From a virus (Duplodnaviria; Heunggongvirae; Uroviricota; Caudoviricetes), in IMG/VR virus record IMGVR_UViG_2703718840_000001, positions 1-10,940 of that record: DNA of 10,940 bases; one strand, written 5' to 3'. A model generated the notes under the pieces. The model searched no databases. It worked only from the letters and a program-made list of their open reading frames with translations, and had not been told where the DNA came from. Below, one piece after another: positions 1 through 10,940 of the stretch (positions are counted from its first letter, which is position 1; each line of letters opens with the position of its first letter). Both the position numbers and the translations under genes were made by a program.

Positions 1-862
1 GGAGCTGGACTTTGAAACCATTCTTGCCGAACGCAAGGCGACACTGATTTCCCTTTACCCGGAAGACCAGCAGGAGGCGGTCGCCCGTACCCTGACGCTG
101 GAATCTGAGCCTCTCGTCAAACTGCTGGAGGAAAATGCTTATCGTGAGCTTATCTGGCGTCAGCGTGTGAATGAGGCCGCACGGGCGGTGATGCTGGCCT
201 GTGCCGCCGGTAATGACCTTGATGTGATTGGTGCCAATTACAACACCACGCGCCTGACTATCACCCCGGCAGATGATTCGACCATCCCGCCGACACCGGT
301 AGTGATGGAGTCTGACACCGATTATCGTCTGCGTATTCAGCAGGCGTTTGAAGGTTTAAGCGTCGCCGGGTCGGTGGGGGCCTATCAGTATCATGGTCGC
401 AGTGCTGACGGGCGTGTCGCGGATATCTCTGTCACCAGTCCGTCTCCTGCCTGCGTCACCATCTCCGTGCTGTCACGTGAAAATAACGGTGTCGCATCCG
501 AAGACCTGCTGGCTGTGGTGCGTAACGCCCTTAATGGTGAGGACGTCAGGCCGGTGGCTGACCGTGTGACCGTGCAGTCTGCCGCCATTGTTGAATACCA
601 GATAAACGCCACGCTTTACCTTTACCCTGGCCCCGAAAGCGAACCCATTCGCGCTGCCGCCGTGAAAAAACTGGAAGCGTACATCACAGCACAGCACCGG
701 CTGGGGCGTGACATCCGTCTGTCTGCCATTTATGCCGCTTTGCATGTGGAAGGTGTGCAGCGTGTCGAACTGGCTGCACCACTGGCCGACATCGTGCTCA
801 ACAGTACGCAGGCGTCTTTCTGTACCGAATACCGCGTCGTGACCGGAGGCTCGGATGAGTGA
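1..862 (+). CDS. J: Baseplate assembly protein J (P2 gpJ-like), 5' end lies upstream of the window
   Basis: Frame beginning at nt 2 is open from the window edge (ELDFETILAERKATLISLYPEDQQEAVARTL...) and runs into the listed ORF 167-862. The protein is recognised as near-identical to phage P2 gpJ, which is about 300 aa, so roughly 15 N-terminal residues are missing. The stop overlaps the start of the next gene (ATGAGTGA at 855-862). Confidence 0.92.
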   Translation, partial: ELDFETILAERKATLISLYPEDQQEAVARTLTLESEPLVKLLEENAYRELIWRQRVNEAARAVMLACAAGNDLDVIGANYNTTRLTITPADDSTIPPTPVVMESDTDYRLRIQQAFEGLSVAGSVGAYQYHGRSADGRVADISVTSPSPACVTISVLSRENNGVASEDLLAVVRNALNGEDVRPVADRVTVQSAAIVEYQINATLYLYPGPESEPIRAAAVKKLEAYITAQHRLGRDIRLSAIYAALHVEGVQRVELAAPLADIVLNSTQASFCTEYRVVTGGSDE

Positions 863-1385
863 TTCGCGACTGCTGCCGACCGGCTCATCACCGCTTGAGG
901 TCGCCGCCGCAAAAGCCTGTGCGGAAATTGAAAAAACGCCGGTCAGGATTCGTGAGCTGTGGAACCCGGACACCTGCCCGGCAAATCTGCTGCCGTGGCT
1001 GGCGTGGGCGTTTTCGGTCGACAGGTGGGATGAAAAGTGGCCGGAAGCGACAAAACGCGCCGTTATCCGCGATGCCTATTTCATCCACTGTCATAAGGGC
1101 ACGATAGGTGCAATCCGGCGTGTGGTGGAGCCGCTCGGCTATCTCATCAACGTGACGGAGTGGTGGGAAAACAGTGACCCGCCCGGCACCTTCCGGCTTG
1201 ATATTGGTGTACTGGAAAGTGGCATCACAGAGGCAATGTATCAGGAAATGGAACGGCTGATTGCTGATGCCAAACCTGCAAGCCGTCACCTTATTGGCCT
1301 GAACATTACCCGGGACATTCCCGGCTACCTGTTCGCCGGTGGTGTGGCTTACGACGGCGATGTAATTACGGTTTACCCCGGATAA
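855..1385 (+). CDS. I: Baseplate assembly protein I (P2 gpI-like)
   Basis: 176-aa ORF (MSDSRLLPTGSSPLEVAAAKACAEIEK...) recognised as P2 gpI. Its ATG overlaps the J stop codon, indicating translational coupling, and it keeps the P2 order J-I-H. Confidence 0.92.
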   Translation: MSDSRLLPTGSSPLEVAAAKACAEIEKTPVRIRELWNPDTCPANLLPWLAWAFSVDRWDEKWPEATKRAVIRDAYFIHCHKGTIGAIRRVVEPLGYLINVTEWWENSDPPGTFRLDIGVLESGITEAMYQEMERLIADAKPASRHLIGLNITRDIPGYLFAGGVAYDGDVITVYPG

Positions 1386-1395
1386 GTGAGGAATA

Positions 1396-3618
1396 ATGAG
1401 CACAAAATTCAGAACCGTTATCACCACTGCCGGTGCAGCAAAGCTGGCAGCGGCAACCGCACCGGGAGGGCGGAAGGTCAACATTACCACGATGGCCGTC
1501 GGGGATGGCGGTGGTAAATTACCTGTCCCGGATGCCGGACAGACCGGGCTTATCCACGAAGTCTGGCGACATGCGCTGAACAAAATCAGTCAGGACAAAC
1601 GAAACAGTAATTATATTATCGCAGAGCTGGTTATTCCGCCGGAGGTGGGCGGTTTCTGGATGCGAGAGCTTGGCCTGTACGATGATGCGGGAACGTTAAT
1701 TGCCGTGGCGAACATGGCCGAAAGTTATAAGCCAGCCCTTGCCGAAGGCTCAGGGCGTTCGCAGACCTGCCGCATGGTCATCATCGTCAGCAGTGTGGCC
1801 TCAGTGGAGCTGACCATTGACACCACAACGGTGATGGCAACGCAGGATTACGTTGATGACAAAATTGCAGAACATGAACAGTCACGACGTCACCCTGACG
1901 CCTCGCTGACCGCAAAAGGTTTTACTCAGTTAAGCAGTGCGACCAACAGCACGTCTGAAACACTGGCCGCAACGCCGAAAGCGGTAAAGGCCGCGTATGA
2001 CCTTGCTAACGGGAAATATACCGCACAGGACGCCACCATAGCGCGAAAAGGCCTTGTCCAGCTCAGTAGTGCCACCAACAGCACGTCTGAAACACTGGCC
2101 GCAACGCCGAAAGCGGTAAAGGCAGCATATGACCTTGCTAACGGGAAATACACTGCACAGGACGCCACCACAACGCGAAAAGGCCTTGTCCAGCTCAGTA
2201 GCGCCACCAACAGCGATTCTGAAACGCTGGCCGCAACGCCAAAGGCGGTAAAAGCAGCATATGACCTTGCTAACGGGAAATATACCGCACAGGACGCCAC
2301 CACAGCGCGGAAAGGCCTTGTCCAGCTCAATAGTGCCATCAACAGCGATTCTGAAACGCTGGCCGCAACACCAAAAGCAGTGAAGTCTGCCTATGACAAT
2401 GCTGAAAAACGTCTTCAGAAAGATCAGAACGGTGCGGATATTCCTGATAAAGGACGTTTTCTGAGTAACATTAATGTTTACAGCAAAGGTGAAGTGGATA
2501 AGAAAAAGGGAATGCGAAAGTATTCGTTTGCAGCCCCTGCAAATGTCGTTGCCGGGAAGTGGTATCCCGTTATCTTTCGCCGTGCTGCCAGCCTTTCAGG
2601 AGAAATGGCATCCCGCGTCGTTATTTCCACTGGTTGTTATAACGGCGATTATGTAATGAATAACTGCGAGTTTAATGGCATGGTTATGCCCGGAGGATGG
2701 ACTGATCGTGGTTCATATGCGGCAGGTTATTTCTGGACGTATCAGACCAATGAGCGTTCAATCCATTCCATTGTTACAAGCCTGAAAGATGATGATGTAT
2801 GTAGTGTTTTTTATGTTGAAGCCAGAGCTTTCCCTGTGCAAATTCTTGCAGAGGAAGGGCTAACGGTTATTGTTCCGACAGAGGATTATGTCGTCGGTCA
2901 AACGACATATAAGTGGGGGGCAACTAATCCCGCTACAGAAAGCACGAACGCACAGGCTATTCTGGATTTTAAAAATGGGCGCGGTTATTACTGCTCACAT
3001 CCATTTATTTCCAACCTTTCAGGAAATGCTGCAACAGCCTCAAAACTCGAAACACCGAGGAAAATAGCAGGTGTTGCCTTTGATGGTTCTGGAGATATTA
3101 CCCTTAATGCCAGAAATGTCGGTGCATTTGCACTTCGGCAGACAGGTAATACGGTTAATGGTGATACAGCCGTGGGATGGAATTGGGACAGTGGCGCATA
3201 CAACGCTCTGATTGGGGGAGCATCTGCATTAATTCTTCACTTTAATATAAATGCTGGTAGCTGCCCGGCTGTACAGTTTCGTGTGAATTATAAAAATGGC
3301 GGTATATCTTACAGGTCAGCCCGTGATGGTTATGGTTTTGAATCTGGCTGGTCTGATTTCTATACCACAACACGAAAACCATCAGCGGGAGATGTTGGTG
3401 CATACACCAAAGCTGAATCAGATTCTCGCTATGTCCGGGATATTCGCCTGGGCACTCGTGTTGTTCAGACCATGCAGAAAGGAGTGATGTATGAGAAAGC
3501 AGGGCACGTAATTACAGGGCTTGGTATTGTCGGTGAAGTCGATGGTGATGACCCCGCAGTATTCAGACCAATACAAAAATACATCAATGGCACATGGTAT
3601 AACGTCGCACAGGTGTAA
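1396..3618 (+). CDS. H: Tail fibre protein H (P2 gpH-like), with internal 44-aa tandem repeats and a divergent distal (receptor-binding) part
   Basis: 740-aa ORF preceded by GAGG (1388-1391). The N-terminal ~170 aa (MSTKFRTVITTAGAAKLAAATAPGGRKV...) and the extreme C-terminus (...YEKAGHVITGLGIVGEVDGDDPAVFRPIQKYINGTWYNVAQV) match P2 gpH as I recall it. The middle and distal part is AT-rich and contains a motif (NAATASKLETPRKIAGVAFDGSGDITLNA) that I recall as typical of side-tail-fibre proteins. Confidence 0.92.
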   Translation: MSTKFRTVITTAGAAKLAAATAPGGRKVNITTMAVGDGGGKLPVPDAGQTGLIHEVWRHALNKISQDKRNSNYIIAELVIPPEVGGFWMRELGLYDDAGTLIAVANMAESYKPALAEGSGRSQTCRMVIIVSSVASVELTIDTTTVMATQDYVDDKIAEHEQSRRHPDASLTAKGFTQLSSATNSTSETLAATPKAVKAAYDLANGKYTAQDATIARKGLVQLSSATNSTSETLAATPKAVKAAYDLANGKYTAQDATTTRKGLVQLSSATNSDSETLAATPKAVKAAYDLANGKYTAQDATTARKGLVQLNSAINSDSETLAATPKAVKSAYDNAEKRLQKDQNGADIPDKGRFLSNINVYSKGEVDKKKGMRKYSFAAPANVVAGKWYPVIFRRAASLSGEMASRVVISTGCYNGDYVMNNCEFNGMVMPGGWTDRGSYAAGYFWTYQTNERSIHSIVTSLKDDDVCSVFYVEARAFPVQILAEEGLTVIVPTEDYVVGQTTYKWGATNPATESTNAQAILDFKNGRGYYCSHPFISNLSGNAATASKLETPRKIAGVAFDGSGDITLNARNVGAFALRQTGNTVNGDTAVGWNWDSGAYNALIGGASALILHFNINAGSCPAVQFRVNYKNGGISYRSARDGYGFESGWSDFYTTTRKPSAGDVGAYTKAESDSRYVRDIRLGTRVVQTMQKGVMYEKAGHVITGLGIVGEVDGDDPAVFRPIQKYINGTWYNVAQV
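1918..2400 (+). repeat. In-frame tandem repeat array, 132-bp unit (44 aa), about 3.6 copies, inside tail-fibre gene H
   Basis: Direct reading: units start at about 1918, 2050, 2182 and 2314 (for example ACGTCTGAAACACTGGCC at 1951 and again at 2083). The peptide GLVQLSSATNS(T/D)SETLAATPKAVKAAYDLANGKYTAQDATTARK recurs. Copies 1-2 share the NSTSETL variant and copies 3-4 the NSDSETL variant. Confidence 0.93.
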
Positions 3619-3621
3619 TTT

Positions 3622-4149
3622 ATGCAGCATTTAAAAAATATTACTGCGGGTAATCCAAAAACTGTTGCCCAATATCAACTGACAAAAAATTTTGATGTTA
3701 TCTGGTTATGGTCCGAAGAGGGAAAAAACTGGTATGAGGAAGTAAGTAATTTTCAGGAAGAGACGATAAAGATTGTTTACGACGAGAATAATATAATTGT
3801 CGGCATCACCCGAGATGCTTCAACGCTTAACCCTGAAGGTTTTAGCGTTGTCGAGGTTCCTGATATTACTGCCAACCGACGTGCTGATGACTCAGGTAAA
3901 TGGATGTTTAAGGATGGTGCCGTGATTAAGCGGATTTATACGGCAGACGAACAGCAGCAACTGGCAGAATCACAAAAGGCAACTTTGCTTTCCGAAGCAG
4001 AATCCGTGATTTTGCCGCTGGAGCGCGCTGTCAGGCTGAATATGGCAACAGATGAGGAACGCAGCCGACTGGAAGCATGGGAACGCTACAGCGTTCTGGT
4101 CAGCCGTGTGGATCCTGCAAATCCTGAATGGCCGGAAATGCCGCAATAA
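3622..4149 (+). CDS. G: Tail fibre assembly protein/chaperone (P2 gpG-like, Tfa family)
   Basis: 175-aa ORF immediately downstream of H with AGGTG at 3611-3615. The C-terminal half (...[38 protein letters not shown]) resembles the conserved end of tail-fibre assembly proteins. Length and position match P2 gene G. Confidence 0.88.
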
Positions 4150-4185
4150 GTTGTATAAGCTCTGGTGTGAGATTACATATCTATG

Positions 4186-4224
4186 GCACAGAGTAAAGCC
4201 TAATCTGACAGGCCGCTCTGTGTC
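4186..4224 (+). other. Imperfect inverted repeat / possible stem-loop downstream of G
   Basis: CACAGAG (4187-4193) pairs with CTCTGTG (4216-4222), with a ~22-nt loop. No T-tract follows, so it is not a classical intrinsic terminator. Confidence 0.2.
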
Positions 4225-4370
4225 TGGAGTAGATTTTAGTAAAGCATTATTTTATTAGTGCAAATTCTAAACAATACATTTTATGTATATGATATCCTGC
4301 GGACTTTAATGACTTGGTTTAGGCTAACCAGATAACACTGAAGGAATATTTTTGATAATTAAGGTGCGGT

Positions 4371-4964
4371 ATGTTTACTAAGCGACGATTAAAAAATATT
4401 AACTGGGAGGCAAGTTCAGTGATTCTTGCTATGGTTCTCTTTGTTGGAAATATATTTTATACAAATCATCGTGATGATATAAGCATGGAGGCTGAGAGAG
4501 ACAGTATCAGAACAATGTTTGCATATGAAATCGCTAATAACCATCGCGCTCTCACTTTTCTTGATAAAACGAGAAATATTGGCTTTGACGAAAATTCGGA
4601 GCATTTTGTTGGCGAGCCTTTTGCCATTAATGTCGAATCATTAGGAGGGCCTCGCTTACAGATTGCATTAAACCAGACTGATAAAGTTTTTAAAGCCTAC
4701 TTCAGTGAATTAAGTAAACTTGATAAAGAGGATGTTACTCTTCTTATGGACTATTACCATGAGCAAAGCATCCTGCTGGAGTGTGTAAAATCTACGTTAC
4801 AGAAGATGAAAGGTAATAATGATATTAAAGTTGATATTGATGGTTACTTATTAGAAGAACACTTCATGAATGAGTTTAATCTTTCTAATATTTTGCTTAA
4901 ACGCTATAGCCATTTGTTGTCACAACACCTCAAAAAACCCGAAACAAAGGATTTACATAATTGA
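4371..4964 (+). CDS. Hypothetical protein of the accessory insert between G and FI: predicted single-pass membrane-anchored protein, function unknown
   Basis: 197-aa ORF with AAGGTG (4361-4366) 4 nt upstream of the ATG. It is markedly AT-rich compared with the flanking tail genes. The N-terminus has a basic stretch (KRRLK) followed by a ~17-residue hydrophobic segment (SSVILAMVLFVGNIFY), suggesting an N-in signal anchor. The rest is charged and likely helical, with no catalytic motif I recognise. Only one long ORF lies in this ~1.1 kb inter-module region. Confidence 0.7.
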   Translation: MFTKRRLKNINWEASSVILAMVLFVGNIFYTNHRDDISMEAERDSIRTMFAYEIANNHRALTFLDKTRNIGFDENSEHFVGEPFAINVESLGGPRLQIALNQTDKVFKAYFSELSKLDKEDVTLLMDYYHEQSILLECVKSTLQKMKGNNDIKVDIDGYLLEEHFMNEFNLSNILLKRYSHLLSQHLKKPETKDLHN

Positions 4965-5152
4965 TAATCTGCTAATGGTTATTCATGGGATAACTATGTT
5001 TTATATGTAATCCAACTCAGATGAATTACTGATTCTGGATAATAACCGCAGAGCGGCATATACCCTGACAGGCAAATGTCCGCTTCTTGCTCAAAGCAGA
5101 CTGTCAGATTTGATAACTTTTGGGTTATGTAAATTGTCAGTCGGAAAATGAG

Positions 5153-5170
5153 TGTGTACAAATCAGGACA
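5153..5170 (+). promoter_or_regulatory. Candidate activator-type dyad (TGT-N12-ACA) upstream of FI, possible P2-style late promoter element
   Basis: TGT (5153-5155) - 12 nt - ACA (5168-5170). P2-family late promoters are known to carry a TGT-N12-ACA dyad centred near -55 for Ogr/Delta-type activators, and the FI-operon late promoter is expected in this spacer. The match is short, and the hairpin at 5172-5188 sits where the core promoter would be, so this is tentative. Confidence 0.2.
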
Positions 5171-5171
5171 G

Positions 5172-5199
5172 GCGGGCGAATTGCCCGCATTTTCTTTAT
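5172..5199 (+). terminator. Candidate Rho-independent terminator downstream of the accessory ORF
   Basis: GC-rich 6-bp stem GCGGGC (5172-5177) / GCCCGC (5183-5188) with a 5-nt loop (GAATT), followed by the T-rich run ATTTTCTTTATC (5189-5200). It lies about 200 bp after the 4964 stop and about 100 bp before FI. Confidence 0.4.
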
Positions 5200-5293
5200 C
5201 TGTTGTTTCATCCCCTGACCAGCCAGGTCAAATAGCGTCTCATGCTCTGCACAACAGAAAATAGTTGCACCCATTAACCACGGAGTTAAACGG

Positions 5294-6484
5294 ATGAGTG
5301 ACTATCATCACGGCGTGCAGGTGCTGGAGATTAACGACGGCACCCGCGTCATTTCCACCGTATCCACGGCCATTGTCGGCATGGTCTGCACGGCCAGCGA
5401 TGCAGATGCGGAAACCTTCCCCCTCAATAAACCGGTGCTGATTACCAATGTGCAGAGCGCAATTGCAAAGGCCGGTAAAAAAGGCACGCTGGCGGCATCG
5501 TTGCAGGCCATCGCCGACCAGTCAAAACCGGTCACCGTTGTCGTGCGTGTGGAAGACGGCACCGGCGACGACGAAGAAACGAAACTCGCGCAGACCGTTT
5601 CCAATATCATCGGCACCACCGACGAAAACGGCCAGTACACCGGACTGAAAGCCCTGCTGGCGGCGGAGTCGGTAACCGGTGTTAAACCGCGTATTCTCGG
5701 TGTGCCGGGGCTGGATACCAAAGAGGTGGCTGTTGCACTGGCATCAGTCTGTCAGAAGTTGCGCGCTTTCGGGTATATCAGCGCATGGGGCTGTAAGACC
5801 ATTTCCGAGGTGAAAGCCTACCGCCAGAATTTCAGCCAGCGTGAGCTGATGGTCATCTGGCCGGATTTCCTCGCATGGGATACGGTCACCAGTACCACCG
5901 CCACCGCGTATGCCACCGCCCGTGCGCTGGGTCTGCGTGCCAAAATCGACCAGGAGCAGGGCTGGCATAAAACGCTGTCCAACGTCGGGGTAAACGGTGT
6001 TACCGGCATCAGTGCCTCTGTATTCTGGGATTTGCAGGAGTCCGGCACCGATGCTGACCTGCTTAACGAGTCAGGCGTCACTACGCTGATTCGCCGCGAC
6101 GGTTTCCGATTCTGGGGTAACCGTACCTGCTCTGATGACTCGCTGTTCCTCTTTGAAAACTACACCCGCACCGCGCAGGTGCTGGCCGACACGATGGCTG
6201 AGGCGCACATGTGGGCGGTGGACAAGCCCATCACCGCAACGCTGATTCGCGACATCGTTGACGGCATCAATGCCAAATTCCGTGAGCTGAAAACAAACGG
6301 CTATATCGTGGATGCGACCTGCTGGTTCAGCGAAGAATCCAACGATGCGGAAACCCTCAAGGCCGGAAAACTGTATATCGACTACGACTATACACCGGTG
6401 CCTCCTCTTGAAAATCTGACCCTGCGCCAGCGTATTACCGATAAATACCTGGCAAATCTGGTCACCTCGGTTAACAGCAATTAA
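5294..6484 (+). CDS. FI: Contractile tail sheath protein (P2 gpFI-like)
   Basis: 396-aa ORF (MSDYHHGVQVLEINDGTRVISTVSTAIVGMV...) recognised as P2 FI. GGAG at 5282-5285. It is the first gene after the accessory insert, as in the P2 FETUD operon. Confidence 0.94.
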   Translation: MSDYHHGVQVLEINDGTRVISTVSTAIVGMVCTASDADAETFPLNKPVLITNVQSAIAKAGKKGTLAASLQAIADQSKPVTVVVRVEDGTGDDEETKLAQTVSNIIGTTDENGQYTGLKALLAAESVTGVKPRILGVPGLDTKEVAVALASVCQKLRAFGYISAWGCKTISEVKAYRQNFSQRELMVIWPDFLAWDTVTSTTATAYATARALGLRAKIDQEQGWHKTLSNVGVNGVTGISASVFWDLQESGTDADLLNESGVTTLIRRDGFRFWGNRTCSDDSLFLFENYTRTAQVLADTMAEAHMWAVDKPITATLIRDIVDGINAKFRELKTNGYIVDATCWFSEESNDAETLKAGKLYIDYDYTPVPPLENLTLRQRITDKYLANLVTSVNSN

Positions 6485-6496
6485 GGAGCCTGACCG

Positions 6497-7015
6497 ATGG
6501 CAATGCCGCGCAAACTCAAGTTAATGAACGTCTTTCTGAACGGCTACAGCTATCAGGGCGTCGCGAAGTCCGTCACGCTACCAAAACTGACCCGTAAGCT
6601 CGAAAACTATCGCGGTGCGGGGATGAACGGCAGCGCACCGGTAGACCTCGGCCTTGATGACGATGCGCTGTCAATGGAGTGGTCGCTCGGTGGCTTCCCG
6701 GATTCGGTTATCTGGGAGCTTTACGCCGCAACCGGTGTGGATGCCGTACCGATTCGTTTTGCAGGCTCTTACCAGCGCGACGATACCGGCGAAACGGTGG
6801 CCGTCGAGGTGGTCATGCGTGGACGTCAGAAAGAAATCGACACCGGCGAGGGCAAACAGGGAGAAGACACCGAGTCGAAAATCTCCGTGGTCTGCACCTA
6901 TTTCCGGCTGACGATGGACGGTAAGGAGCTGGTCGAAATCGACACCATCAACATGATTGAGAAGGTGAACGGCGTCGACCGGCTGGAGCAACACCGTCGC
7001 AATATCGGCCTGTGA
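6497..7015 (+). CDS. FII: Tail tube protein (P2 gpFII-like)
   Basis: 172-aa ORF (MAMPRKLKLMNVFLNGYSYQGVAKSVTLPKLTRKLENYRGAG...) recognised as P2 FII. AAGGAG at 6482-6487 overlaps the FI stop codon. Confidence 0.94.
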   Translation: MAMPRKLKLMNVFLNGYSYQGVAKSVTLPKLTRKLENYRGAGMNGSAPVDLGLDDDALSMEWSLGGFPDSVIWELYAATGVDAVPIRFAGSYQRDDTGETVAVEVVMRGRQKEIDTGEGKQGEDTESKISVVCTYFRLTMDGKELVEIDTINMIEKVNGVDRLEQHRRNIGL

Positions 7016-7071
7016 TTTTCATCCGGTCAGCCTGGCTGACCGGTTAACCCCGATTCAGAAGTGAGAAAACC

Positions 7072-7347
7072 ATGAACAAAGAAAACGTCATTACCCTGGA
7101 CAAGCCGGTCAAACGTGGTGAGCAGGTTATCGAACAGGTCACGCTGATGAAACCTAATGCCGGGACGCTGCGCGGTGTCAGTCTGGCTGCGGTCGCAAAC
7201 TCCGAAGTCGATGCACTGATTAAAGTGCTGCCGCGCATGACCGCACCGATGCTGACCGAGCAGGAAGTCGCCGCGCTGGAACTGCCTGACCTTGTGGCGC
7301 TGGCCGGTAAGGTGGTCGGTTTTTTGTCGCCGAACTCGGTGCAGTGA
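7072..7347 (+). CDS. E: Tail assembly chaperone E (P2 gpE-like), zero-frame product
   Basis: 91-aa ORF (MNKENVITLDKPVKRGEQVIEQVTLMKPNAGTLRGVSLAAV...) at the expected position between FII and T. It ends at TGA 7345-7347, just after the slippery site. Confidence 0.9.
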   Translation: MNKENVITLDKPVKRGEQVIEQVTLMKPNAGTLRGVSLAAVANSEVDALIKVLPRMTAPMLTEQEVAALELPDLVALAGKVVGFLSPNSVQ

Positions 7348-7499
7348 CGTTTCCGAAAAATCTCTCGGTCGATGATCTGATGGCGGATGTGGCAGTGATA
7401 TTTCACTGGCCGCCATCAGAACTGTATCCCATGAGCCTGACCGAACTCATCACATGGCGCGAAAAGGCGCTCCGGCGAAGCGGAAACACGAATGAGTAA
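7072..7499 (+). CDS. E+E': Tail assembly chaperone E+E' produced by programmed -1 ribosomal frameshift (joined 7072-7325 / 7326-7499)
   Basis: After a -1 slip on T-TTT-TTG (7320-7326) the new frame reads VAELGAVTFPKNLSVDDLMADVAVIFHWPPSELYPMSLTELITWREKALRRSGNTNE and stops at TAA 7497-7499, overlapping the ATG of T (7492). This matches the known P2 E/E' arrangement. Confidence 0.8.
7320..7326 (+). other. Slippery heptamer T-TTT-TTG, -1 programmed frameshift site for E+E'
   Basis: The heptamer is in the zero frame of E (codons GGT-TTT-TTG), 7 codons before the E stop. The -1 frame is open for 58 further codons to the start of T. Confidence 0.8.
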
Positions 7500-9939
7500 C
7501 AATGTAAAATTACAGGTATTGCTCAGGGCTGTTGACCAGGCATCCCGCCCGTTTAAATCCATCCGCACAGCGAGCAAGTCGCTGTCGGGGGATATCCGGG
7601 AAACACAAAAATCACTGCGCGAGCTGAACGGTCAGGCATCCCGTATTGAGGGGTTCCGCAAGACCAGTGCACAGCTCGCCGTGACTGGTCAGGAACTGAA
7701 AAAAGCCAGACAGGAAGCCGCAGCACTGGCTGTCCAGTTTAAAAATACTGAACGACCAACAAATGCACAGGCAAAGGCAATGGAAGCCGCGCGTAAAAAT
7801 GTGTCGGAGTTACAGGCGAAATATAACAGCCTGAGATTGTCGGTACAGCGCCAGCGTCAGGAACTGAGTCAGGCGGGTATTAATACCCGTAATCTGGCGC
7901 ATGATGAACGAGGGCTGAAAAACCGTATCAGTGAAACCACCGTACAGCTTAACCGGCAGCGTGACGCGCTGGCGCGTGTCAGTGCGCAACAGGCAAAACT
8001 TAACGCAGTAAAACAGCGTTATCAGGCCGGAAAGGAACTGGCCGGTAATATGGCCTCAGTGGGCGCTGCCGGTGTGGGGATTGCTGCTGCGGGAACGATG
8101 GTCGGAGTTAAGCTGCTGATGCCCGGTTATGAGTTTGCGCAGAAAAACTCAGAATTGCAGGCCGTGCTAGGAGTGGCAAAAGACTCCGCCGAAATGACCG
8201 CACTCCGCAAGCAGGCGCGCCAGCTCGGCGACAATACCGCAGCCTCGGCAGATGATGCAGCCGGTGCACAGATTATCATTGCGAAAGCGGGTGGAGATGC
8301 TGCGGCTATTCAGGCGACAACGCCGGTCACGCTGAATATGGCACTGGCGAATCAGCGGTCGATGGAAGAAAACGCGCAACTGTTGCTGGGGACTAAGGCA
8401 TCCTTTCAACTGTCAAATGATGATGTCAGCCATGTGGGCGACGTGTTGTCGGCAACGATGAATAAGTCGGCGGCTGATTTTCAGGGACTCAGTGATGCAC
8501 TGACTTACCTCGGGCCGGTTGCGAGGACTGCAGGTGTAAGTCTTGAGCAGGCAGCAGCCATGACAGGTGTGCTGCATGACAATAACATCAGGGGGTCAAT
8601 GGCGGGGACGGGTAGCAGTGCCGTTGTCACCCGATTACAGGCACCGACTGGAAAAGCATGGGATGCACTCAAAGAGCTTGGCGTTAAAACCTCGGACAAA
8701 AAGGGAAATATGCGTCCGTTGTTCACCATTCTGAAAGAGATTCAGGCCAGCTTTGATAAACACAAGCTGGGAACGTCTCAGAAGGGGGAATACCTTAAAA
8801 CCATTTTTGGTGAGGAAGCCCTGAAATCAGCGAACGTTTTACTGGCAGCGGCAGCAAGCGGAAAACTGGATAAGCTGACCGCCACGCTGAAAGCCTCGGA
8901 CGGTAAAACGGAAGAGCTGGTTAAAATCATGCAGGATAACCTCGGCGGTGACTTTAAGGCGTTTCAGTCCGCTTATGAGGCGGTGGGGACAGACCTGTTT
9001 GACCAGCAGGAAGGCACACTGCGTAAGCTCACGCAGACGGCCACAAAGTATGTGTTAAAACTCGACGGCTGGATCCAGAAAAACAAATCACTGGCGTCAA
9101 CCATCGGCCTCATTGCCGGTGGCGCGCTGGCGCTGACTGGCATCATCGGTGCCATTGGTCTTGTAGCCTGGCCGGTTATCACCGGCATCAATGCCATTAT
9201 CGCGGCAGCAGGCGCAATGGGAGCAATCTTCACGACGGTTGGCAGTGCTGTTATGACGGCCATCGGGGCGATTAGCTGGCCGGTTGTGGCCGTGGTGGCC
9301 GCCATTGTCGCCGGGGCGTTGCTTATCCGTAAATACTGGGAGCCTGTCAGCGCATTCTTTGGCGGTGTGGTTGAAGGGCTGAAAGCGGCATTTGCGCCGG
9401 TGGGGGAACTGTTCACGCCACTTAAGCCGGTGTTTGACTGGCTGGGCGAAAAGTTACAGGCCGCGTGGCAGTGGTTTAAAAACCTGATTGCCCCGGTTAA
9501 AGCCACCCAGGACACCCTGAACCGTTGCCGTGACACGGGCGTCATGTTCGGGCAGGCACTGGCTGACGCGCTGATGCTGCCGCTTAATGCGTTCAACAAA
9601 CTGCGCAGCGGTATTGACTGGGTACTGGAAAAACTCGGCGTCATCAACAAAGAGTCTGACGCACTTGACCAGACCGCCGCCAGAACTCAAGCCGCCACGT
9701 ATGGCAGCGGTGGTTATATTCCGGCGACCAGCTCTTATGCAGGTTATCAGGCTTATCAGCCGGTCACGGCACCGGCTGGCCGCTCTTATGTGGACCAGAG
9801 TAAAAACGAATATCACATCAGCCTGACGGGTGGTACTGCGCCGGGGACACAGCTCGACCGCCAGTTACAGGATGCGCTCGAAAAATACGAGCGGGATAAA
9901 CGTGCGCGCGCCCGTGCCAGCATGATGCATGACGGTTAA
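7492..9939 (+). CDS. T: Tail tape measure protein (P2 gpT-like)
   Basis: 815-aa ORF with a coiled-coil-like, Q/R/A-rich N-terminal part and a Gly/Ala-rich hydrophobic segment (LIAGGALALTGIIGAIGLVAWPVITGINAIIAAAGAMGAI...) typical of tape measure proteins. The start overlaps the E' stop. The sequence is recognised as P2 gpT. Confidence 0.93.
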   Translation: MSNNVKLQVLLRAVDQASRPFKSIRTASKSLSGDIRETQKSLRELNGQASRIEGFRKTSAQLAVTGQELKKARQEAAALAVQFKNTERPTNAQAKAMEAARKNVSELQAKYNSLRLSVQRQRQELSQAGINTRNLAHDERGLKNRISETTVQLNRQRDALARVSAQQAKLNAVKQRYQAGKELAGNMASVGAAGVGIAAAGTMVGVKLLMPGYEFAQKNSELQAVLGVAKDSAEMTALRKQARQLGDNTAASADDAAGAQIIIAKAGGDAAAIQATTPVTLNMALANQRSMEENAQLLLGTKASFQLSNDDVSHVGDVLSATMNKSAADFQGLSDALTYLGPVARTAGVSLEQAAAMTGVLHDNNIRGSMAGTGSSAVVTRLQAPTGKAWDALKELGVKTSDKKGNMRPLFTILKEIQASFDKHKLGTSQKGEYLKTIFGEEALKSANVLLAAAASGKLDKLTATLKASDGKTEELVKIMQDNLGGDFKAFQSAYEAVGTDLFDQQEGTLRKLTQTATKYVLKLDGWIQKNKSLASTIGLIAGGALALTGIIGAIGLVAWPVITGINAIIAAAGAMGAIFTTVGSAVMTAIGAISWPVVAVVAAIVAGALLIRKYWEPVSAFFGGVVEGLKAAFAPVGELFTPLKPVFDWLGEKLQAAWQWFKNLIAPVKATQDTLNRCRDTGVMFGQALADALMLPLNAFNKLRSGIDWVLEKLGVINKESDALDQTAARTQAATYGSGGYIPATSSYAGYQAYQPVTAPAGRSYVDQSKNEYHISLTGGTAPGTQLDRQLQDALEKYERDKRARARASMMHDG

Positions 9940-9953
9940 GGAGGTGACGAAAA

Positions 9954-10433
9954 ATGATGCTCGCGTTAGGTATGTTTGTTTTTATGCGCCAGACGCTGCC
10001 ACACCAGACCATGCAGCGTGAATCAGATTATCGCTGGCCGTCAAATTCCCGTATCGGTAAACGGGATGCCTACCAGTTTCTCGGCGTTGGCGAGGAAAAC
10101 ATGACGCTGGCCGGTGTGCTTTATCCCGAACTGACCGGCGGCAAGCTGACGATGACCACGCTCAGGCTGATGGCAGAGGAAGGTCGGGCGTGGCCGTTGC
10201 TGGATGGCACCGGCATGATTTACGGCATGTATGTCATCAGCAGGGTGAGTGAAACAGGGAGTATTTTCTTTGCAGACGGCACACCCCGAAAAATTGATTT
10301 TACGCTGTCGCTCACCCGCGTTGACGAATCACTGGCCGCGCTTTATGGCGATATCGGTAAACAGGCGGAATCGCTCATCGGTAAGGCCGGCAGTCTGGCG
10401 ACCAGATTCACAGGTATGACGGGGGCGGGATAA
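9954..10433 (+). CDS. U: Tail protein U (P2 gpU-like)
   Basis: 159-aa ORF (MMLALGMFVFMRQTLPHQTMQRESDYRWPSNSRIGKRDAYQF...) with AAGGAGG at 9938-9944. It follows T as in P2, and its TAA stop overlaps the next ATG (TAATG at 10431-10435). Confidence 0.92.
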   Translation: MMLALGMFVFMRQTLPHQTMQRESDYRWPSNSRIGKRDAYQFLGVGEENMTLAGVLYPELTGGKLTMTTLRLMAEEGRAWPLLDGTGMIYGMYVISRVSETGSIFFADGTPRKIDFTLSLTRVDESLAALYGDIGKQAESLIGKAGSLATRFTGMTGAG

Positions 10434-10940
10434 TGCTGGATGCGCTGACATTTGATGCAGGCAGTACGCTGACGCCGGATTACATGCTGATGCTCGACAG
10501 CAGGGATATTACCGGCAATATCAGCGACCGTCTGATGAGCATGACTCTGACGGATAACCGGGGCTTTGAAGCTGACCAGCTTGATATTGAACTGAACGAT
10601 GCCGACGGGCAGGTCGGGCTGCCGGTTCGTGGCGCTGTCCTGACGGTGTATATCGGCTGGAAAGGTTTTGCCCTGGTATGCAAAGGGAAATTTACCGTTG
10701 ATGAGGTTGAACACCGGGGCGCGCCGGATGTGGTCACCATCCGCGCCCGGAGTGCAGATTTTCGCGGGACGCTCAATTCCCGCCGTGAAGGCTCCTGGCA
10801 TGACACCACGCTCGGTGCGATTGTTGAGGCGATAGCCTCCCGTAACAGGCTGGAAGCCAGTGTCGCTCCGTCACTGGCCGGAATTAAAATCCCGCACATC
10901 GACCAGTCGCAGGAGTCTGATGCGAAATTCCTGACCCGTC
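10433..10940 (+). CDS. D: Tail protein D (P2 gpD-like, late control / tail completion), 3' end lies beyond the window
   Basis: Not in the supplied ORF track because it has no stop in the window. The frame from ATG 10433 is open to the window end and translates to MLDALTFDAGSTLTPDYMLMLDSRDITGNISDRLMSMTLTDNRGFEADQLDIELNDADGQVGLPVRGAVLTVYIGWKG..., recognised as the N-terminus of P2 gpD. Confidence 0.88.
   Translation, partial: MLDALTFDAGSTLTPDYMLMLDSRDITGNISDRLMSMTLTDNRGFEADQLDIELNDADGQVGLPVRGAVLTVYIGWKGFALVCKGKFTVDEVEHRGAPDVVTIRARSADFRGTLNSRREGSWHDTTLGAIVEAIASRNRLEASVAPSLAGIKIPHIDQSQESDAKFLTR

Follow-up and report, generated by a model that had tools for sequence, protein, structure and literature searches.

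The closest described counterparts of the gene considered here are Fun(Z) of phage P2, gp15 of phage HK97, SieA of phage P22 and the nuclease SNIPE. Fun(Z) is annotated as blocking T5, and we know of no mechanism described for it. HK97 gp15, whose gene is annotated as a moron among the tail genes, is said to be located in the membrane and to block DNA entry. SieA is a small prophage-encoded inner-membrane protein, produced from a solo gene beside virion and ejection genes, that blocks the delivery of DNA across the inner membrane (PMC10883804), and SNIPE is a constitutively membrane-localised nuclease that acts at the site of genome injection, cleaving the DNA as it enters, and associates with the tape-measure protein and ManYZ (PMC13190303). 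The present subject is an open reading frame (ORF) at 4371-4964 of the IMG/VR virus record IMGVR_UViG_2703718840_000001, positions 1 to 10,940, a stretch of 10,940 nucleotides that was analysed whole and is hereafter called the window.

The window corresponds to the tail module of a prophage of the P2-like (Peduovirus) type, and the ORF is a self-contained cargo ('moron') cassette in its Z/fun hotspot, the slot between the tail fibre assembly gene G and the tail sheath gene FI. Its product is tentatively read as an envelope-level exclusion factor that would act when incoming DNA passes the inner membrane, a role that is possible by analogy with the systems above but falls short of being probable. 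The likeness to Fun(Z) lies in the shared G-FI slot, in the non-essential and AT-rich character of the cargo and in the same inverted junction sequences, whereas Fun(Z) is encoded on the opposite strand, at 15675-17261 of P2, and is ~528 aa long. A tblastn search of 50,697 phage records with the 197-aa protein returned 13 matches, none of which is P2 (NC_001895), and the name 'lysogenic conversion protein' that NCBI gives to the product probably echoes the Z/fun locus. The proposed mode of action would be that of SieA, and the effect would be like that of SieA or HK97 gp15, brought about by an unrelated protein. HK97 gp15 resembles the present protein in being a moron product from among tail genes, but comprises only 62 aa. 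The place of action would be the same as that of SNIPE, although SNIPE bears a nuclease domain and no catalytic domain was detected in the present protein with Pfam or PADLOC.

The cargo gene and its slot

The G-FI slot is the classical P2 Z/fun locus, where P2-EC58 holds an unrelated ORF1. Vassallo et al. (2022) described this locus as a second defence-enriched locus of P2, with three validated systems (PMC9519451), and both P2 hotspots have also been described by Egorov et al. (10.1101/2024.10.15.618418). In the window, a variable insert is found between G and FI within conserved inverted junctions, and its limits follow from the positions to which the P2-EC58 inverted repeats map on either side (Table 1). 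The core of the left junction (4202-4220) is inverted relative to 5092-5110, with 84% complementarity over 19 nt. The insert has a GC content of 0.33-0.38 against 0.55-0.59 for the tail genes, the ORF is the only cargo gene within it, and other P2-like phages align to the flanks only, from window position ~5065-5075 onward. The arrangement is uniform in the 28 E. coli-type viral contigs from IMG/VR: the distance from G to the gene is 225 nt in all of them, and a further 333-334 nt separate the gene from FI in the 25 that extend so far. The whole 1.1-kb insert recurs at 96.5-99% identity: 13 phage records contain it, as do 201 of 5426 complete E. coli genomes, and ~830 further complete genomes carry the conserved flank without the insert, such that the cargo gene occupies about one fifth of the slots (201 of 1037 flank-carrying complete genomes). 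It is a common and compact candidate, whose presence in a known hotspot is not surprising.

The ORF (plus strand, ATG start, 197 aa and a stop codon) is a real, conserved gene. The protein matches the profile of PHROG 3829, annotated as of unknown function, over residues 1-197 of 197 (E = 1.4e-132), and the same profile is matched by 18 of 18 diverse relatives. All eight alleles examined are intact, with pairwise ratios of nonsynonymous to synonymous substitution rates (dN/dS) of 0.16-0.66, and the differences among them fall mostly in the loops of the predicted bundle and the C-terminal tail, only one being located in the membrane helix. That the ORF should instead be non-functional, or mis-called in AT-rich, horizontally acquired DNA, is scarcely credible: such a region could be silenced, perhaps by H-NS, and the annotated start codon does differ between records, but the intact alleles, dN/dS values below one, the single PHROG common to all 18 relatives and an architecture kept across genera in homologues down to ~20-30% identity each argue against it.

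The discrepancy in start codons arises from several phage records (AC1, SIDE7, P22H1) in which a shorter coding sequence of 181 aa is annotated from GTG 4419 (V17). This start would remove the basic N-terminal tail and about half of the membrane helix. Residues 11-16 (NWEASS), encoded upstream of GTG 4419, show little or no variation among homologues with 53-98% identity, and the ATG at 4371 is preceded by the Shine-Dalgarno-like AAGGTG; ATG 4371 is therefore the better start.

The protein and its predicted structure

From the sequence alone, a first-pass annotation had described a positive N-terminal patch, one hydrophobic helix, the absence of a lipobox cysteine, a charged C-terminal domain of ~165 aa and no visible catalytic motif, and each of these features was borne out. 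The patch, KRRLK, comprises residues 4-8 as read from the translation, and the N-terminal 13 residues hold four Lys or Arg. The hydrophobic stretch spans residues 14-30 of a helix placed at about 12-30, with a best 17-aa Kyte-Doolittle mean of 1.97 compared to 0.75 for the next-best segment. There is no lipobox, because the sole Cys of the protein is C138 and none is located in or after the hydrophobic segment; the signal peptide and lipobox Cys of lipoprotein exclusion factors of the Cor, Llp and Ltp type were not found in the 197-aa protein. The remaining 167 residues (31-197) form an acidic domain with a net charge of -8 and an isoelectric point of 5.5, and Pfam, NCBIfam and PADLOC returned no catalytic domain.

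Three other assignments were considered and discarded. A cleavable signal peptide is rejected by the lack of conserved small residues at -3/-1 and by the length of the hydrophobic region, and a di-iron or metal-binding bundle with E/D-xx-H motifs by the poor conservation of H58, H130 and H164 in distant members. A holin or lysis role had as its sole support one noise-level Pfam match in one relative, and was dropped given that the slot holds variable cargo. Searches of Pfam, NCBIfam and PADLOC with the protein and the 18 diverse relatives gave nothing consistent; in PADLOC-DB v2 the protein had no match at E up to 10, and the relatives yielded scattered single-member noise only. The family is a known one by sequence (PHROG 3829) in a known hotspot, and it is unrelated to any characterised protein family.

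AlphaFold2, supplied with a 33-sequence alignment, predicts a membrane-anchored, up-down four-helix bundle with a mean predicted local distance difference test score (pLDDT) of 79.7 and a predicted template modelling score (pTM) of 0.71, the five models ranging from 72 to 80 in pLDDT. A single helix of residues 12-66 would serve as both the membrane helix and the first helix of the bundle, and is followed by helices at 88-100, 105-116, 119-148 and 151-185. An earlier model built from a shallower alignment likewise displayed a bundle. Of the structural follow-up that the first-pass annotation had proposed, the prediction thus yielded a fold, while the structure-based search did not yield a relative: Foldseek found nothing below E = 0.1 among the viral models of BFVD. 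A profile search of PDB sequences returned only 6un9, at a non-significant E = 0.26. The periplasmic four-helix-bundle sensor domains of chemoreceptors and histidine kinases (4HB_MCP type) also count among the nearest known systems; they were sought as a profile match together with a bundle flanked by two membrane helices (TM1-bundle-TM2) and an attached signalling module, and this combination was not found.

Conservation within the protein is highest in the transmembrane segment, whether close, intermediate or broad alignments are used. In the broad alignment, W12, S16, A20, F24 and I28 are conserved on one helical face as an i/i+4 stripe. Since a passive anchor would not be so constrained, this face probably packs against a specific intramembrane partner, either further copies of the protein or a helix of another protein, and the stripe offers a direct handle on that membrane partner. 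Conserved motifs of the soluble part include R47-x3-AYEI-x2-N57, MDYY (126-129) and GFD...GEPFA (residues 71-85), the last of which is conserved despite low model confidence and would form a loop at the membrane-distal tip of the bundle, between helices 1 and 2.

A conserved face of this kind is also what might be expected of a single-protein abortive-infection or membrane-disrupting effector, whose transmembrane face would oligomerise into a pore or lesion once the bundle senses a phage product or a perturbation of the envelope, so that the cell dies or arrests. The S16/A20 pair is of the small-xxx-small type and is flanked by W12 and F24, as is typical of self-associating helices, and the transmembrane proteins of known systems are usually suicide effectors (PMC9122126). 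The known transmembrane effectors, however, usually come with a partner sensor gene or possess several membrane helices, whereas the present gene stands alone and encodes one helix, and it has no PADLOC match. An effector of this type is somewhat unlikely, yet it fits almost as well as exclusion.

Membrane topology

A single transmembrane helix is a feature of the family: in 16 of 18 members the best 17-aa window scores ~1.7-2.5 and no comparable second segment is present, the two exceptions being P0060, at 1.28, and one entry that is truncated at its N-terminus. The first-pass annotation had placed the C-terminal domain in the periplasm by the positive-inside rule; the features seen here point both ways, on balance towards this placement. 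The N-terminal tails are basic, and those of distant homologues are longer and more so (by manual count, 9 Lys or Arg in 29 residues in P0045, and 8 in P0050). Furthermore, three diverged lineages (P0045, P0050, P0054, P0081-P0086) bear a CX4C pair (CEYPGC, CNNLTC, CESLSC) at the extreme C-terminus, which may form a periplasmic disulfide loop; the E. coli protein has no C-terminal CX4C. In many close homologues, on the other hand, the numbers of Lys and Arg within 15 residues of the helix are similar on both sides. An N-in/C-out (type II) topology is likely on these sequence features.

Relatives and their genomic contexts

The PHROG 3829 family has few members. An exhaustive search with its profile through 1.84 billion representative proteins gave 29 matches, members occur in only 2 of 185,579 species-representative genomes, and the named ones all belong to the Enterobacterales, namely Escherichia, Salmonella, Pantoea, Kosakonia, Pluralibacter, Enterobacter, Dickeya, Pectobacterium and Proteus. 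The copies are always solo genes in cargo positions of mobile elements. In P4-like satellites of Pantoea and Kosakonia the gene is located at the edge, directly after the primase; in a lambdoid prophage it is found at the end of the element, adjoining a Dcm methylase and a DUF4928 protein; and another copy is situated near RadC and antirestriction genes. Further copies are found within the tra region of an integrative and conjugative element (ICE), on the opposite strand; in Dickeya, adjoining SIR2 and a DUF87 (HerA-type) ATPase; in the tail module of a Pectobacterium siphophage, as a moron on the opposite strand; and in the accessory region of an IncFII plasmid, adjoining IS91 and a PIN/HTH pair. 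Finally, a 30%-identical homologue in Proteus mirabilis ATCC 29906 lies beside ahpCF with a putAbiC-domain protein (PF16872) and an HD-domain protein, in what may be an uncharacterised defence islet. The coordinates noted for this islet with its putAbiC and HD proteins are 4046-5461 and 1712-3244 of the Proteus locus (L024).

These surroundings make a strong case, by guilt by association, for a role against mobile elements, and they do not reveal its mechanism. The SIR2 and HerA-type ATPase and the putAbiC neighbours would suit an abortive effector. A different reading is that the gene encodes a lysogenic-conversion envelope protein with no part in defence, serving for example in stress tolerance, colonisation, serum or bile resistance, or the ability to act as a conjugation recipient. 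Precedents for such cargo exist in P2-like prophages, as a cytolethal distending toxin has been reported from the old/tin hotspot, and swaps of tail fibres from Z/fun (Egorov et al., 10.1101/2024.10.15.618418), and a niche-fitness gene has been associated with P2-like prophages (PMC3573123). The distant homologue in the ICE tra region would likewise suit an entry-exclusion-like role. We regard a conversion factor as unlikely nevertheless, considering the repeated association of the family with defence genes and defence hotspots, its rare and patchy distribution, as expected of arms-race cargo, and the lack of similarity to virulence or transport families.

Within the P2-like phages, the cargo gene travels with more than one fibre type. 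In the 28 IMG/VR contigs (L025-L052), copies of 93-98% identity accompany at least four different H/G modules (window 2701-4146), with G varying from 75 to 99% identity and the C-terminus of H from 40 to 100%. One cargo with several such modules indicates that the fibre module and the adjacent cargo recombine independently, and it argues against a masking of the phage's own receptor, which is accordingly disfavoured, and for a receptor-independent step.

A possible role in exclusion at the envelope

In the favoured reading, the protein would be a type II bitopic inner-membrane protein with its basic N-terminal tail in the cytoplasm. Its transmembrane face (W12-S16-A20-F24-I28) would pack on its own copies or on the helix of a partner protein, and the acidic four-helix bundle, ~5 nm long as estimated from helix length, would extend the membrane helix rigidly into the periplasm. 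A lysogen would then be protected at the envelope by disturbance of the inner-membrane step of foreign DNA entry, the target being either the building or the working of the conduit made by phage tape-measure or ejection proteins, or the host channel used by that conduit. Were the protein an exclusion or other defence factor, it would add a new compact membrane-level mechanism (one gene, ~0.6 kb) to the immune repertoire of E. coli and would help to explain the differences in phage susceptibility between strains that are relevant to phage therapy.

A number of observations weigh against exclusion. Comparison by hhalign gave no detectable homology to P22 SieA (probability 0.9%), and the values for P22 SieB, an abortive-type exclusion protein, and for HK97 gp15 were 0.8% and 0.4%, respectively. 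The four-helix-bundle fold is generic, the conserved membrane helix suits a pore-forming abortive-infection effector equally well, and the balance of charges close to the helix in many homologues tells against the topology on which this role depends. No paper turned up when the literature was searched by accession numbers and by the PHROG identifier. Published lysogens are of particular relevance. AC1 carries a 97.5% identical gene, and of the eight phages lambda, T4, P1, 186, CLB_P2, LF82_P8, AL505_P2 and T7, a panel without T5-like, T1-like or HK97-like phages, its E. coli C lysogens were shielded from lambda and LF82_P8 only; the TIR system in hotspot 1 of AC1 by itself reproduces that protection (Rousset et al., PMC9122126). 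SIDE7, with a 93.9% identical gene, belongs to the set of four P2-like phages examined there as E. coli C lysogens, and protection was reported for AC1 only (PMC9122126). The want of a phenotype attributable to the gene in the AC1 and SIDE7 lysogens counts equally against an abortive effector, and would be in keeping with a conversion factor.

Expression presents a further difficulty. No convincing sigma-70 promoter was found for the gene, the single candidate (4332-4359) being too near the ATG and the count of candidates being below chance, and expression in the lysogen is for this reason an assumption. The cargo gene may also be transcribed late, through read-through from the V-to-G operon. 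A scan for terminators, which identified four sites where 0.4 were expected, found none between the end of G (4149) and the cargo ORF (4150-4370), and, downstream, G and the cargo gene share the hairpin at 5172-5188 as their first terminator-like site. A search of 4000-5400 with Rfam gave only one sub-threshold noise match. The position of the terminators and the missing promoter, together with the strand that the gene shares with the late tail genes and the fact that the non-P2 copies have only the ribosome-binding site in common upstream, would suit a function in the phage's own lytic cycle, in which a protein co-transcribed with the late V-W-J-I-H-G operon would block the injection of progeny DNA into infected or lysing cells, as does T5 Llp, or would tune lysis. 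Such a function is nonetheless highly unlikely: the slot is non-essential and is filled by unrelated genes in other P2-like phages, some of them on the opposite strand; the gene is found also where there is no tail operon, namely in satellites, on plasmids, in an ICE and in chromosomal islets; and it is not tied to one fibre type.

The present data do not separate exclusion from abortive infection or from a conversion function unrelated to defence. Where the first-pass annotation had proposed a possible superinfection exclusion factor, the prophage context was upheld, with the gene in the exact defence slot of the P2 Z/fun locus, and homology to the known exclusion proteins was not found; exclusion at the inner membrane is plausible by analogy.

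The 3' hairpin and cassette-like mobility

Copies of the gene outside P2-like phages shed light on how the cargo may be exchanged. Those of a Pantoea chromosomal island (L019) and an Enterobacter plasmid (L022) are homologous to the window from 4349 to ~5107; that is, the homology begins just upstream of the AAGGTG and stops within the right inverted repeat of P2. The element common to all is a hairpin of ~40 nt, AATCTGACA-GTCCGCTC-loop-GAGCGGAC-ATT, which flanks the cargo of the P2 Z locus in inverted orientation and follows the cargo gene in both the island and the plasmid. The copy in P2-EC58 has a perfect 13-bp stem (-26 kcal/mol, z = -7.2) and the stem variant of the plasmid looks compensatory, while both copies in the window are decayed and fold weakly (z of ~+0.4 to +0.6). 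The pattern resembles that of a promoterless cassette with a 3' recombination site and fits the P2-EC58 record, where an 'inverted repeat' is annotated. This shared 3' junction bears on the exchange of cargo between phages, plasmids and chromosomal islands.

Taken jointly with the exclusion reading, PHROG 3829 would represent a new single-protein family of inner-membrane exclusion factors whose conserved face docks on a phage or conjugative DNA-entry conduit, and which spreads as a promoterless ORF with a 3' hairpin site. As part of this, a site-specific recombinase could move the cargo between P2 phages, plasmids and chromosomal islands in the manner of integron cassettes. We consider this combined proposal quite unlikely as a whole.

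Other features of the window

The remaining features are collected in Table 1.

Table 1. Coordinates of the cargo gene, its junctions and the surrounding tail genes in the window, with sites of the hairpin element elsewhere
Feature	Position	Strand	Basis or remark
J	167-862		ORF order
I	855-1385		ORF order
H, tail fibre	1396-3618		Pfam confirms
G, tail fibre assembly, left neighbour of slot	3622-4149	+	Pfam Caudo_TAP, E = 1.2e-34; annotated alike in matching genomes
Left junction sequence	4122-4222		Local alignment to 'left inverted repeat' of AJ512683 (P2-EC58 Z-region)
Hairpin element, window copies	4202-4245, 5076-5112		
Variable AT-rich cargo segment	4223-5077 (about)		Composition profile; junction alignment with P2 and P2-EC58
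Shine-Dalgarno-like AAGGTG	4361-4366	+	Read from sequence; ends 4 nt before ATG
Cargo gene, predicted bitopic membrane protein, PHROG 3829, NCBI 'lysogenic conversion protein'	4371-4964	+	
K/R-rich N-terminal tail (KRRLK), residues 1-10, predicted cytoplasmic	4371-4400	+	
NWE motif and transmembrane helix, residues 11-30	4401-4460	+	Hydropathy, conservation, AlphaFold helix 12-66
Predicted acidic four-helix bundle continuous with membrane helix, residues 31-197	4461-4961	+	
Right junction sequence	5078-5168		Homologous to P2-EC58 'right inverted repeat'; contains hairpin-like element ~5076-5112
Intrinsic-terminator-like hairpin GCGGGCGAATTGCCCGC (5172-5188) and T-rich run	5172-5197	+	Terminator scan; conserved in P2 and P2-EC58
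Putative P_F late promoter region (activator-binding site ~5198-5226, transcription start ~5268-5270)	5198-5270	+	Placed by homology, transferred from P2 NC_001895 by alignment
FI, tail sheath, right neighbour of slot	5294-6484	+	Pfam Phage_sheath_1, Phage_sheath_1C, Gp18_domIII_N
FII, tube	6497-7015		ORF order
E/E', then tape measure T, then U	T: 7492-9939		ORF order
Hairpin element in L019	6690-6740		
Hairpin element in L022	6690-6740		
Hairpin element in L009	10677-10728		
Hairpin element in L010	~11410-11429		
Hairpin element in L001	80-130		

A reverse-strand ORF of 45 aa (window 5137-5274, minus strand) overlaps the conserved terminator and the P_F region, and a shorter form of it is annotated as hypothetical in some phage records (for example PhiR44_1 and P22H1); it is probably not a gene. 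The tail fibre gene H contains four near-identical tandem Phage_fiber_2 repeats of ~44 aa that include KGLVQLSSATNSTSETLAATPKAVKAAYDLANGKYTAQDAT, especially at ~1900-2400, and these repeats give rise to long spurious antisense ORFs, such as that at 1926-2342 on the minus strand.

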